A DNA stretch of 64,000 nt from Candidatus Bathyarchaeota archaeon (GTDB taxonomy: Archaea; Thermoproteota; CALKCG01; B24; DRYS01), in NCBI GenBank assembly GCA_018396535.1, contig JAGTQC010000001.1, forward strand, positions 32,001-96,000, in the 5' to 3' direction. Below, one piece after another: positions 5,621 to 31,658 of this stretch. The translations under genes and the position numbers were made by a program. Position 1 is the stretch's first letter; each line of letters begins with the position of its first letter. The notes under the pieces were generated by a model that worked only from the letters and a program-made list of their open reading frames with translations, was not told the origin of the DNA and searched no databases.

Positions 5621-6614
5621 ATGTTTAGAGAACCTATAGTAGCCGTTACACACGGAGAGTCTCTCTGAGAGACCCGAATACTGTGACGGCGTATGCTCAG
5701 CAGCTATACTGAAGAGAAGTATGAGAGTGGATACTATACGTATATCTACACCTACAAGTCTATGTAGAATACTGAAATCGCTAGCTTCTATAAACCCGTC
5801 GACCATAGTTATATGCGATATAGCTGTCGATACAGGCTACATGAACGAGCTTATAGATCTGATCAGAAACATATCCTCTAGATGCTTCATATACTATATA
5901 GATCATCATCCACCACCCGCAGGATTCCCCCCACCCGGCATAGATCAATTCAAGTACATATACAGGTCGGGTGTATCAGCCTCCCAGCTTGTATACGAAG
6001 CTATAGGTAGATCCGATGATAGGATATCCAGAATCCTTATGGCCTACGGAGCTATAGGCGATATGTGCGATGAATCCCAGCTAGTTAGGGATGTATTAAG
6101 CCTATGGGATAGACGGCTCATATACCTAGAAGCAGGCTTCATAACCGAGGGGCTGATATCTAGGAGAGATGAGAAATTCATATACGAGCTAATAGATAGG
6201 CTAGCTCAAGGTAATCCACCTAGTAGTATACCGGAGCTAGTATCCAGCTGTCTTAAAACCCTGAGCGACGAGTACAAGGTGTATAAGTATGTAGAGGAAA
6301 ACGTTAACGTAAGAGGTAGGATAGCTATCGTAACTAAGATACCTATAAGAGGCTTCGGAGGTAAAGCTGCAAACTATGCTCTAGCATATACCAGAGCTGA
6401 TGTAGCTATAGCTATAACTATAAGCGGTGGTACAGCTCATATGAGTTTAAGAAGTAGGAATCCAAGAATAGATCTAAACGATCTAACACGTAGATTATCC
6501 ACAGCTCTAGGAGGATACGGTGGGGGGCATCCTCAATCAGCTGCAGCAAGGATACCAGCTTCAAGAATAGAGGAGTTCCTCATGTTTATGGAGATAGCTC
6601 TACAAGGATTATGA
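5621..6614 (+). CDS. DHH/DHHA1 family phosphoesterase, intron-containing (exons 5621-5657 and 5680-6614; 323 aa spliced)
   Basis: SD GGAGGT before ATG5621; spliced N-terminus MFREPIVAVTHGDCDGVCSAAIL restores motif I; downstream ICD, IDHH, GAIGD, SLRS and GGGHPQSA motifs. Confidence 0.88.
5658..5679 (+). other. Predicted 22-nt BHB-like mRNA intron in the DHH gene
   Basis: Inner stem GTCTCT/AGAGAC, bulges AGA and ATA; contains in-frame TGA at 5666; removal restores frame and the HGDxDG motif. Confidence 0.8.
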
Positions 6615-6690
6615 GAACCTCGATATCTAACCCTACAAGCTAAACCTTAATATGTAAGTACATCTTGAGCATCCTATGGCGGTGGGATAG

Positions 6691-7788
6691 ATGAAGGTAA
6701 CTATATCCGTTATAAAAGCAGATGTAGGATCCCTAGCAGGACACCACATAGTATACCAGGAGCAGATAGATCTCGCAAAGAAGATGCTACAGAAAGCTAA
6801 GGATGAAGGCCTACTCATAGACTACTACGTATTCAACGCTGGAGATGACCTAGAACTCGTTATGACTCATACTAGAGGAGAATCCAGCCCTGAGATACAC
6901 GGCTTAGCTTGGAATGTATTCAAGGAGGTGACAGAGAAGGTTTCACGTCCTAGAAAGCTGTATGCAGCTGGTCAAGATCTACTAAGCGAAGCATTCTCTG
7001 GTAATGTTAAAGGTATGGGTCCAGGCGTAGCCGAGATGGAGATAGAGGAGAGGAGGAGTGAACCTATAATAGTCTTTGCCGCAGATAAGACGGAGCCCGG
7101 AGCCTGGAATCTACCTCTATACAGGATGTTCGCAGATCCATGGAATACAGCTGGTCTAGTTATAGATCCATCCATGCATCAAGGCTTCGTATTCAGGGTT
7201 ATGGATGTGGTCGAAGGCAAGACCATAGATTTGAAGACTCCTGAAGAAGCATACGATCTACTAGCTCTAATAGGTACTACAGGAAGATATATCGTAGAGA
7301 GGGTTTACAGAGCTGACGGGCTTCTAGCAGCAGTAGCTAGCGTAACTAGGCTAAGCCTCATAGCAGGTAGGTATGTAGGTAAGGATGATCCTGTATGTAT
7401 AGTTAGATGCCAGCATGGCCTACCAGCAGTCGGTGAAGCCTTAGCCCCATTCTTCACACCACACTTCGTAGCAGGGTGGATGAGGGGGTCACACTACGGT
7501 CCATTAATGCCTGTAGGCTTGAAGGATAGTAGATGCTCATTCTTCGATGGGCCGCCTAGAGTCGTAGCGTTAGGATTCCAGCTAGCTGAAGGTAAGCTAA
7601 TAGGACCAGCAGATCTATTCGATGATGTAGCATTCGACCATTCAAGAAGGATAGCACTCCAGATGGCAGAATTAATAAGAAGAAACGGGCCTATAGCACC
7701 AGCTATACTAGGACCAGAGGAACTAGAGTACACGGGTATAAAGGAGACTCTACAGAGACTAGCATCTAGATTCAAAGAGGCTAAGTAG
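6691..7788 (+). CDS. fbp: Bifunctional fructose-1,6-bisphosphate aldolase/phosphatase (class V)
   Basis: IKADVGS, GDD, LYAAGQDLL, DKTEPGAWN, YVGKDDP and GWMRGSH motifs. Confidence 0.96.
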   Translation: MKVTISVIKADVGSLAGHHIVYQEQIDLAKKMLQKAKDEGLLIDYYVFNAGDDLELVMTHTRGESSPEIHGLAWNVFKEVTEKVSRPRKLYAAGQDLLSEAFSGNVKGMGPGVAEMEIEERRSEPIIVFAADKTEPGAWNLPLYRMFADPWNTAGLVIDPSMHQGFVFRVMDVVEGKTIDLKTPEEAYDLLALIGTTGRYIVERVYRADGLLAAVASVTRLSLIAGRYVGKDDPVCIVRCQHGLPAVGEALAPFFTPHFVAGWMRGSHYGPLMPVGLKDSRCSFFDGPPRVVALGFQLAEGKLIGPADLFDDVAFDHSRRIALQMAELIRRNGPIAPAILGPEELEYTGIKETLQRLASRFKEAK

Positions 7789-7914
7789 CTATATACATTT
7801 TTGTGTTAATATATCGAATCCATCTTCTTTTTACCTCTTCAATACAACTATATAGGATCCCATGATACAACTACAGTTTTCTATACCCGATACACTAAAA
7901 ACATTTCCAACAGA

Positions 7915-7920
7915 CTTAAA
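7915..7920 (+). promoter_or_regulatory. Putative TATA box for the structured RNA
   Basis: CTTAAA about 27 nt upstream of the 5' strand of the closing helix. Confidence 0.45.
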
Positions 7921-7946
7921 TCCTCTCACCACCTTAGATAAAAATC

Positions 7947-29739: not shown

Positions 29740-29745
29740 GAGGAT

Positions 29746-30300
29746 TTGGTCGTTATAACGGTTAGTGGTCTCCATGGATCCGGTAGATCTACACAGGCTA
29801 AGCTACTAGCTAGAGAGTTTAACTTGAGATATGTATCAGCTGGTCAGCTGTTCAGGGATATAGCTAGAGAGAAGGGTGTAGCTATACATATGCTTAGCTC
29901 ACAGTTGTTATCCGATCCTACGATAGACTATATGATAGATGAGAGAACTAAACGTGAAGCTGAGAAGGGTGATGTAGTACTAGAGGGTGATCTATCCGGT
30001 GTTATGGCTGGTAACCTAGCCGACGTTAAGATATTCTTGAAGGCTTCGGATGAAGCTAGGTTTAGACGTATAGCTAAACGTGAAGGATGTAGTTTAGAAG
30101 AGGCGGCGAAGATCACCTTAGAGAGGGAGGAGAGGGATAGAGTAAGGTTTAAGATATTTTACGGTGTAGATCCATTCGATCTATCCCTATACCATATAGT
30201 TCTAGATACTAGCTTACTAACCGTCGAATCAACTTTCAGAATACTAAAAGTATGTGTAGAAGAGTATATCAAGTGTAAAGGTTTAAGGGGAAATACTTAA
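29746..30300 (+). CDS. cmk: Cytidylate kinase
   Basis: ITVSGLHGSGRST P-loop, SAGQLFR, RIAKRE; synteny. Confidence 0.9.
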   Translation: MVVITVSGLHGSGRSTQAKLLAREFNLRYVSAGQLFRDIAREKGVAIHMLSSQLLSDPTIDYMIDERTKREAEKGDVVLEGDLSGVMAGNLADVKIFLKASDEARFRRIAKREGCSLEEAAKITLEREERDRVRFKIFYGVDPFDLSLYHIVLDTSLLTVESTFRILKVCVEEYIKCKGLRGNT

Positions 30301-30343
30301 GAGTAGGCTGAGTGAATCCCTAGCCTTTTAGAAGGTGATTCCG

Positions 30344-30628
30344 ATGATAGAGGTGGGTAGAGTATGCGTTAAGACGAGGGGTAGGGAGGCTGGTCTTAAA
30401 TGCGTGATAGTAGATATAATAGACGATAACTTCGTATTGATAACAGGTCCTAAGAATATAACTGGTGTTAGGAGGCGTAGAGTTAACGTTAAACACTTAG
30501 AACCTACACAGTATAAGCTAGAGATAGAGAAGGGGGCAAGCGATGAAGCTGTAGCTGAAGCTTGGAGTAGATCTGGTCTACCTGAAGAGTTCTATAAACC
30601 AGTTAAACCTTTATTGAAGCCTATCTAG
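30344..30628 (+). CDS. rpl14e: 50S ribosomal protein L14e
   Basis: EVGRVCVKTRGREAG and RRRRVNVKHLEPT motifs. Confidence 0.96.
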   Translation: MIEVGRVCVKTRGREAGLKCVIVDIIDDNFVLITGPKNITGVRRRRVNVKHLEPTQYKLEIEKGASDEAVAEAWSRSGLPEEFYKPVKPLLKPI

Positions 30629-30640
30629 GGGGTGTAGGTC

Positions 30641-31658
30641 TTAACTTCTACACCTCCATGGAGCGTTAAGAGGGAGTTCATATATAGGGAGACACCGTAT
30701 ACCGATGGAAGGTATGGGTGTAGACCTGATAGAAGACCTATCGATAAACTACTAGAGTATGGAGTGATACTACTCGATAAACCATCAGGCCCTACCAGTC
30801 ATGATGTAACAGCGCTTATCAGGAGGATAGTTGAAGCTAAGAAAGCTGGTCATGGCGGAACCCTAGAAGTCTAGATCTATAAGGGATCTAGACTGGGGAT
30901 ATCCAGCTGTTACAGGTGTTCTACCTATAACTCTGAATAATGCTGTTAAGATAGTTAGAGTTCTACTTAGCGGTGGTAAGGAGTATGTAGGCGTCATGAG
31001 GCTTCATGGAGATGTATCTAGGGATAAGATTAAATCATGCTTCGATATGTTCCAGGGAGAGATATATCAGAAGCCTCCTGTTAGATCATCTGTTAAGAGG
31101 AGGCTTAGAACTAGGCGTATATACTATCTGGAGCTTCTAGAGATCGATGGACGTGATGTACTGTTTCGTGTAGGCTGCGAGGCTGGGACGTATATAAGAA
31201 AGCTATGCTATGATATAGGCGAGATACTCGGCTGCGGTGCTCATATGAAGGAGCTTAGACGTACACGTGTTTCTACATTCACAGAGGATGAATGTGTACG
31301 TGTAGATGATATATTCGATGCTTACATGAGCTGGAAGGAGTCTGGGGATGAATCTATGCTTAGAAGGATTGTTAGACCTATGGAGGATGCTCTAACTATA
31401 CTACCTCAAGTTATCGTTAAGGATACGGCTGTCGAAGCTATATGTAATGGGGCAGATCTAGCGGTACCTGGTATAGTAGCATTCACAGGGGATATAAGAG
31501 AGGGGAGTCTTGTAGCTATACTAACGGTTAAAGGTGAGGGTGTAGCTTTAGGTTTAGCTCAGCTATCTGCGGAGAAGCTTCTAGAGAAGGAGAAGGGGAT
31601 AGCTGTTAAAACTGAGAGGGTTCTCATGCAGCCTGGTACCTATCCTAGGGTATGGTAA
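30641..31658 (+). CDS. cbf5: H/ACA pseudouridine synthase Cbf5, intron-containing (exons ~30641-30866 and 30901-31658; start codon uncertain)
   Basis: Exon 1 [10 protein letters not shown]...KAGHGGTL; the spliced junction gives [15 protein letters not shown] domain at the C-terminus. Confidence 0.93.
30867..30900 (+). other. 34-nt BHB intron in cbf5
   Basis: Central CCCT/GGGG, bulges AGA and ATA, 10-bp inner stem AGTCTAGATC/GATCTAGACT; in-frame TAG at 30872; splits the catalytic Asp codon. Confidence 0.92.

Follow-up and report, generated by a model that had tools for sequence, protein, structure and literature searches.

The stretch of DNA analyzed here, hereafter the window, is 64,000 nt of contig JAGTQC010000001.1 from the 1.4 Mb genome of a Candidatus Bathyarchaeota archaeon (G000). 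It contains two genes, one for a DHH/DHHA1 phosphoesterase and one for Cbf5, in which a short insert breaks the reading frame at an Asp codon. On comparative grounds, these inserts are very probably ordinary archaeal bulge-helix-bulge (BHB) introns in coding sequence, and two of at least seven in this Bathyarchaeia genome. The original prediction had described the inserts at 5658-5679 (DHH) and 30867-30900 (cbf5), and their positions, 3n+1 lengths, in-frame stops, and split G|AY codons for Asp are all confirmed.

The DHH gene

The DHH gene lies on the forward strand. Exon 1 (5621..5657) opens with ATG and holds 12 codons and the first base (G) of an Asp codon; it is followed by a 22-nt insert (5658..5679) and by exon 2 (5680..6614), which encodes the DHH and GGGH motifs of the phosphoesterase. 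The frame from ATG 5621 meets a TGA at 5666-5668 within the insert, and 22 nt is 3n+1. Excising 5658-5679 joins G(5657) to AC(5680-5681) and gives MFREPIVAVTHG-D-CDGVCSAAIL, the start of a product of 323 residues with the N-terminus MFREPIVAVTHGDCDGVCSAAIL. The sequence HGDCDG, with its DxD motif, arises only upon exon joining, as there is no contiguous GAY codon for this Asp in the DNA of G000. A gene caller would start the gene at ATG 5721.

The predicted splice motif (5642..5690) consists of an exon-exon helix (5642-5650/5682-5690), a central helix (5653-5655/5674-5676), a 5' bulge at 5656-5658 (AGA), a 3' bulge at 5678-5680 (AUA), and a 6-bp hairpin within the insert (5659-5664/5668-5673, RNAfold). 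The motif is relaxed: the central helix has three of four pairs, with an unpaired A.A (5652 and 5677) at its outer end, the 9-bp exon-exon helix begins with C.C, and the 3' AUA sits within a five-base unpaired stretch, AAUAC, in the RNAfold structure (z -2.43).

Pfam searches of exon 2 identify DHHA1 (2.1e-11), while DHH scores 21.5 bits, under the cut-off of 28.1, on exon 2 alone. The residues D74 H75 H76 and G280 G281 G282 H283 are invariant in 14 DHH sequences; we take DxD to be motif I of this protein, DHH to be motif III, and GGGH to belong to DHHA1. Neither a close solved structure nor an NCBIfam equivalog was found for the protein.

Forty related genomes were compared, and the DHH orthologue was located in 29 of them. 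Among the 19 loci with the N-terminus in view, six have an insert at the identical codon and 13 read THGD.DG unbroken. The inserts are 22 nt each in G000 and in two other species of its genus (G001 and G002), and 27, 30, and 30 nt in G003, G006, and G009, which belong to a second family of the same order. All six hold stops, including those of 27 and 30 nt, which are in frame yet have stops, and all six are compatible with BHB geometry. The hairpin shows paired substitutions (GUCUCU/AGAGAC versus GUCUCG/CGAGAC), and in G003 the central helix reaches four of four pairs through a change of C-G to U-A and of A.A to A-U. In a separate, wider scan with one genome per species, five of 77 informative loci have the insert, all of them from Bathyarchaeia/Bathyarchaeota, and the other 72 read H[GAST]D.DG unbroken.

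The exon 1 peptide MFREPIVAVTHG differs only by synonymous changes among three species of the genus (read by eye), and the ratio of nonsynonymous to synonymous substitution (dN/dS) of exon 2 is 0.10-0.17. The insert is also present unchanged in DNA contigs of two independent runs, X12 and X7. These comparative facts are not those of a pseudogene, an assembly error, or a frameshift, and by them the DHH insert is to be read as a second coding-sequence BHB intron.

The cbf5 gene

The cbf5 gene, also on the forward strand, has an exon 1 (30641..30866) that encodes the DKCLD domain and has no ATG, GTG, or TTG before 30764, a 34-nt intron (30867..30900) with an in-frame TAG at 30872-30874, and an exon 2 (30901..31658) that encodes TruB_N, TruB_C_2, and PUA (domains from Pfam). 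Excising 30867-30900, again 3n+1, joins G(30866) to AT(30901-30902) and restores GHGGTL-D-PAVTG; the spliced sequence reads GHGGTLDPAVTG. The splice motif (30852..30910) is a canonical BHB, in which a 4-bp CCCU/GGGG central helix (30861-30864/30895-30898) lies between two 3-nt bulges, AGA at 30865-30867 and AUA at 30899-30901 (RNAfold), with an 11-bp inner hairpin (30868-30878/30884-30894) and an exon-exon outer helix (30852-30860/30902-30910; z -2.98).

An intron of 11-76 nt lies at the G|AY of this Asp codon in 23 of the 30 loci compared among the relatives, and the other seven are contiguous. In the 17 of these loci solved with the strict motif, a subset separate from the presence counts, the 3' bulge is AUA in six, AAA in six, ACA in three, and AGA in two. 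The published crenarchaeal cbf5 intron interrupts the catalytic Asp codon after its first base (Yokobori 2009, PMC2738675), and the window's insert is this known pre-mRNA intron, the part of the finding that was known already. Its hosts appear to extend beyond the orders listed in the abstract of PMC2738675.

At the 5' end of the gene, TTA (30641-30643) stands behind GGGGGTG in all three species of the genus, and other families have ATG or TTG at this place; we infer that translation starts at this TTA. A BHB-like hairpin at 30627-30663, between the genes for L14e and Cbf5, has four of four central pairs and 11 inner pairs, and was rejected as an intron after joining gave no Cbf5 frame. Within it, the hairpin 30629-30658 pairs the Shine-Dalgarno-like GGGGGUG with ACACCUCC of the cbf5 PPW codons and leaves the putative start codon in the loop, a pairing also conserved in both other species of the genus. 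The element looks like a hairpin over the Shine-Dalgarno site and start codon rather than an intron. Elsewhere in the genome there are conserved genes with no ATG, GTG, or TTG at the start used by relatives (contig C8 near 44173, minus strand; C10 near 58653, plus; C1 near 11454, minus; C9 near 146450, minus). In the genes for MetRS and ribosomal protein P1, CTG takes the Met position and follows GGAGGTG; a ParA-like gene shows TTA, and the S17e gene ATA. Together with the TTA of cbf5, these missing standard starts suggest the use of unusual start codons.

Searches for further introns

BHB geometry by itself proves nothing, and the proof of introns is comparative. A lenient scan for the geometry gave 144,102 matches genome-wide, with 1,438 on the plus strand and 1,436 on the minus strand of window positions 1-31000. 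After a filter for the joining of open reading frames (ORFs), 1,346 loci still pass and are essentially gene boundaries, and scan scores of 10.5-12.5 occur by chance at many gene starts. Five BHB-type elements had been counted in about 31 kb by the original prediction, and only two mRNA introns are supported there. A tRNA intron called by ARAGORN at window 196-322 was also rejected, its BHB geometry being unfit at the called borders (two of four central pairs).

The census of further introns compared the open frames of G011, a relative of the same order without the DHH intron, with G000 by tblastn. A second filter took the 92 conserved G000 frames in which homology starts upstream of any ATG, GTG, or TTG, and required BHB geometry at the frame opening as well as a conserved exon 1. 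Later scans searched by bulge letters and then by relaxed geometry backed by G011 (the relaxed scans gave 147 and 181 rows, with candidates from among the matches listed), and candidates were checked in the 40 relatives. The resulting number, at least seven, is a lower bound: introns common to G011 are found only where exon 2 has no start codon, and genes with no G011 homologue and most short first exons fall outside the census. The screen depends on strong homology right at the junction and so favors conserved housekeeping genes.

It had been anticipated that apparently broken genes would hide more introns, and five further were found genome-wide, each with a junction confirmed by intron-less homologues. 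In the aIF5A gene, a 35-nt intron (C7:48986-49020) splits AA|A in KSKPGK-HGSAK, at the Lys codon that we take to be the hypusine site; five of 30 loci have the insert and 25 are contiguous (K[PTV]GKHG). The SAM synthetase gene has a 35-nt intron (C8:172213-172247, minus strand) at AA|A in VERK-GLGHPD, with an insert in 11 of 30 loci, 18 contiguous (ERKG.GHPD), and one not comparable. In the gene for a radical SAM enzyme of the AmmeMemoRadiSam type, the intron (C11:41481-41501) is 21 nt, in frame, and contains TAA; it splits AA|A in NPIEK-KPFYHY, and 11 of 30 loci have an insert, 15 are contiguous, and four are not comparable. The aEF-2 intron (C9:125139-125170, minus strand; 32 nt) splits A|AU in IR-N-IGIIAHVDHGKT, with an insert in 14 of 30 loci, 15 contiguous, and one with an insert elsewhere. 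The aIF5B intron (C12:5713-5736, minus strand) is 24 nt, in frame, and ends with TAA; it lies between AUG and ACC in GGM-TQHIGA, and of 29 loci nine have the insert and 20 are contiguous.

NCBIfam and Pfam support the identities of the host genes, and exon 2 begins well inside the family profile in aIF5A (37 of 129), SAM synthetase (26 of 403), and the radical SAM enzyme (60 of 349). All four central pairs form in every insert of SAM synthetase (11/11), the radical SAM enzyme (11/11), and aEF-2 (14/14). Compensatory changes occur in central pairs of aEF-2 (C-G in six, U-A in eight) and the radical SAM enzyme (C-G in five, A-U in six), and in inner pairs of SAM synthetase (G-C in seven and A-U in four; U-A in seven and C-G in four), counts that come from related genomes and are not independent events.

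The aEF-2 gene with its insert elsewhere (L334, genome G031) has no IR|N insert and carries a different, TAA-containing insert following the AH of AHVDHGKT, perhaps marking another intron position in aEF-2. At L302 and L303 (genomes G004 and G012), the radical SAM homologue is part of a 621-amino acid open frame whose N-terminal part fails to align, perhaps owing to a fusion or an inserted element.

Several candidates were rejected. Split tblastn matches between G011 and G000 gave 21 pairs, of which aIF5A is the one real case; the others are plain frameshifts, CRISPR repeats on C12, or antisense frames. A CRISPR-like array is located at about 70380-70820 of C12, where translations of the repeats gave false split matches. 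The candidate in aIF2-gamma (C12:3559-3578) has an in-frame ATG within the supposed intron, and genus-mates read MQV...LIPECNIG unbroken. A candidate at C5:5173-5222 was dropped when its fold was not better than shuffled sequences (z -1.28), and neither a MoaA-like candidate (C7:109019-109049) nor three further hairpin candidates had exon-1 homology.

Features common to the seven introns

In all seven cases the junction derived from the geometry gives a sequence that intron-less homologues read uninterrupted, and the insert brings an in-frame stop or a frame change. Six of the introns in G000 (cbf5, aIF5A, SAM synthetase, the radical SAM enzyme, aEF-2, and aIF5B) have four of four central pairs and 3-nt bulges. 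The split essential Asp codon of the original prediction fits two of the seven; Lys codons are split in three, an Asn codon in one, and the last junction falls between Met and Thr codons. A length of 3n+1 likewise fails as a shared trait, as the inserts mix length classes modulo 3 within each of the six intron families examined. With such mixed classes, read-through or a fixed frameshift cannot work.

The bulge letters recur without forming a signature of the DHH and cbf5 introns. In G000 the 5' bulge is AGA in two introns, AAA in four, and UGA in one, and the 3' bulge is AUA in three, AAA in two, ACA in one, and AGA in one; every one carries a purine before the 5' cut, and in each the intron, the 3' bulge, and exon 2 all begin with A. 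The identical AGA and AUA bulges that had been pointed out are therefore present in both window introns of G000, but the DHH 3' bulge is AGA in five of the six intron-bearing loci, the cbf5 3' bulge is mixed among relatives, and AG|A is also found in tRNA-Leu. Two canonical tRNA-Leu introns of G000 have AG|A...UU|A, four of four central pairs, and a 7-bp outer helix. We read the common letters as a probable general substrate preference, shared with the tRNA introns of the organism. Beyond the bulge letters, reading by eye finds no likeness among the seven intron sequences.

Each intron has its own distribution. That of cbf5 is spread nearly throughout the order and beyond it, and that of aEF-2 is found in all four families of the order and one outside. 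The aIF5B intron is in three families of the order and two outside, that of SAM synthetase in three families, that of the radical SAM enzyme in parts of three, and those of aIF5A and DHH in two each.

All seven junctions fall within invariant blocks. Survivorship may best explain this location in conserved motifs, because the splice motif includes exon sequence, namely six bases of exon 1 and one of exon 2, that is fixed only where the protein is intolerant of change. An alternative reading is bias of a screen that needs homology at the junction.

Splicing machinery and proposed mechanism

The genome encodes two EndA paralogues of 187 and 189 amino acids, both above the PF01974 cut-off. The catalytic-like paralogue (C2:6210-6770) maps to the C-terminal repeat of two-repeat EndAs and best matches the B chains of 3p1z, 3ajv, and 2zyz, which we take to be catalytic subunits of two-subunit EndA. 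The structural-like paralogue (C1:182214-182780) maps to the N-terminal repeat, and its best solved match is the N-terminal part of 5x89. An intact RtcB gene (596 bits) is located at C7:165752-167059. G000 thus probably encodes a two-subunit EndA as well as RtcB, with the functions of cutting and joining suggested by family membership. A broad-specificity EndA had been expected for relaxed BHBs, and the presence of catalytic-like and structural-like paralogues agrees with this.

In the proposed mechanism, the pre-mRNA would fold to place each splice site in a 3-nt bulge, one on either side of a 4-bp helix, itself formed by the last bases of exon 1 and the 3' end of the intron. The two-subunit EndA would cut after the second base of each bulge, and RtcB would ligate the exons, restoring one codon inside a highly conserved motif. 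Since all seven genes stop or shift frame unless spliced, splicing is taken to be constitutive and obligatory.

Several observations weigh against this account. As we read it, the structural-like EndA paralogue seems to lack the catalytic His, a judgment that sets our own reading against a presumed motif. The DHH motif is relaxed, with three of four central pairs in five of the six loci and a mismatch beside the 3' bulge. A good outer helix is missing in five of the seven introns (two to five of eight pairs; aIF5B by eye), and the BHB geometry of aIF5B was computed for G000 alone, with the inserts of relatives read by eye. The sole RNA run with part of the region (X15) has a depth of 0.02 over 5337-6003 and no contig spanning the DHH junction.

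Alternative explanations

The original prediction went further and suggested a genome-wide mRNA-splicing program, either through co-regulation or through a shared mechanism of gain. In the first form, the output of aEF-2, aIF5B, aIF5A, Cbf5, and SAM synthetase would be tied to the activity of EndA and RtcB, so that the making of the translation apparatus would respond to RNA-splicing capacity or to stress. In favor, translation or ribosome biogenesis is the role of four of the seven host genes, and each intron is kept across at least two families. However, the distribution of each intron is patchy and close relatives are without it (25 of 30 aIF5A loci and 13 of 19 DHH loci are unbroken), which is hard to reconcile with a required control point; neither the DHH nor the radical SAM gene fits the theme, and the homology-based screen itself favors conserved housekeeping genes. 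The regulatory explanation is unlikely. It is similarly doubtful that tRNA-type splicing is a required maturation step for core mRNAs (those of aEF-2, aIF5B, aIF5A, Cbf5, SAM synthetase, and others) in which EndA and RtcB would act as a checkpoint tying production of the translation apparatus to RNA processing. If true, this would give prokaryotes a counterpart of regulated unconventional mRNA splicing and offer a living example of protein-coding introns spreading without a spliceosome.

The second form is one origin or one mechanism of gain, such as the insertion of a BHB intron into R|A sites by transposition or reverse splicing. The purine before the 5' cut and the A letters at the cuts are shared by the seven introns of G000, and the two introns in Asp codons are both of phase 1 (G|AY). 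These resemblances are limited, however: intron sequences are dissimilar beyond the bulge letters, and the GUCU...AGAC likeness of the DHH and cbf5 introns of G000 is absent from the cbf5 introns of G001 and G002. The same letters in two tRNA-Leu introns may only mark what the enzyme accepts, and the different distribution of each intron indicates separate gain events. A common origin or mechanism of gain is improbable.

That the inserts are left unspliced, as pseudogenes, assembly errors, or sites of ribosomal frameshifting or bypassing, is highly improbable: RNA run X15 shows no contig across the DHH junction, genes with plain frameshifts exist in the assembly (C13:55.6-59.8 kb and C7:189.8-190.8 kb), and a repeated GGAGA that flanks the DHH insert in family f2 could provide take-off and landing sites, but as many as 23 genomes have an insert at the identical codon, the helices of the inserts covary while their lengths change, their length classes modulo 3 are mixed rather than those of a fixed shift or of a gap with matched codons, the DHH gene has a dN/dS of 0.10-0.17 and an identical insert in contigs from other samples, and bypassing cannot supply the DHH Asp of G000, which is not a contiguous triplet in the DNA and so leaves no landing codon.

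Other features of the window and genome

A 135-nt near-perfect palindromic insert at window 7966-8102 resembles a miniature inverted-repeat transposable element, and a DNA contig of run X11 is without it, joining 7966 to 8102 across a 10-nt overlap. In the RNA run, a structured RNA from about 7940-8270 is very abundant (word depth 2,000-5,000). A back-joined contig connects 8263 to 7957, the ends can pair (GGGCGGUA with UACCGCCC), and an Rfam search up to E = 1 gave no match; this may be a small RNA in circular or permuted form. A 16-nt gap at 9680 in run X15 was rejected as an intron: 16 nt are tandemly duplicated there (9680-9711, at the end of the ORF 8678-9709), and the RNA-run contig has a single copy.

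The genes at C13:55600-59850 (minus strand) and C7:189820-190843 (plus strand) have several plain frameshifts and no insert, and are pseudogenes or local assembly errors. ARAGORN finds only 36 tRNA genes in G000, and three of its six intron calls are doubtful, two failing BHB geometry and one being an 844-nt "intron." Many tRNA genes of G000 are probably interrupted at unusual places, and hence missed.

Comparison with known systems

The searchable literature describes one coding-sequence case of a BHB intron in mRNA, that of cbf5, and one in a 5' leader, and the six coding introns beyond cbf5 appear to be new. In open-access full text (supplementary files aside), no introns were found described for the DHH, aIF5A, aEF-2, aIF5B, SAM synthetase, or radical SAM genes. 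With seven coding introns in 1.4 Mb, mRNA splicing by the tRNA machinery would be something that can recur in a lineage and not a single curiosity. Gene callers will report such essential genes as truncated or split, and the gains and losses among relatives form a natural series in which to study the entry of BHB introns into coding sequence and their persistence in the most conserved motifs.

The closest system is the cbf5 pre-mRNA intron of Crenarchaeota (Watanabe 2002; Yokobori 2009, PMC2738675), which is described in the latter as 16 nt upward and dependent on a hetero-oligomeric EndA. The introns of the window are similarly short, and the other six work alike on paper. In contrast to the hosts that the abstract of PMC2738675 names, Desulfurococcales and Sulfolobales, the host here is a hot-spring Bathyarchaeia lineage, with six further host genes and with junctions at Lys, Asn, and Met/Thr codons besides Asp. 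No other spliced mRNAs were reported in Sulfolobus (Danan 2011). The mRNA of Haloferax volcanii HVO_1309 has a BHB intron in its 5' untranslated region, shown by EndA knock-down and in vitro assay, and cbf5 is given in that paper as the only other mRNA BHB intron reported (Schwarz 2020, PMC7714728). As with HVO_1309, the substrate of EndA here would be an mRNA, outside tRNA and rRNA; HVO_1309 is cut in an untranslated leader and its cleavage was assayed, whereas the present introns lie within coding sequence and are known from sequence. The archaeal tRNA introns at position 37/38 share the motif and, in G000, the letters at the cuts, but their outer helix is the anticodon stem, while five of the seven mRNA introns do not have a good outer helix.

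Ribosomal bypassing in phage T4 gene 60 depends on a fixed gap and on take-off and landing codons that match. The introns described here resemble it in being short inserts with a stop and a hairpin inside coding sequence, yet their gaps vary in length, and the DHH Asp codon of G000 exists only after RNA joining. The ligase of HAC1/XBP1-type splicing in animals is RtcB. As in the IRE1-dependent splicing of HAC1/XBP1, in which a coding mRNA loses a short intron to a protein endonuclease and an RNA ligase, with no spliceosome involved (PMC13149111), the seven introns would be removed by EndA and RtcB; the endonucleases are unrelated, however, and HAC1/XBP1 splicing is a regulated stress response.

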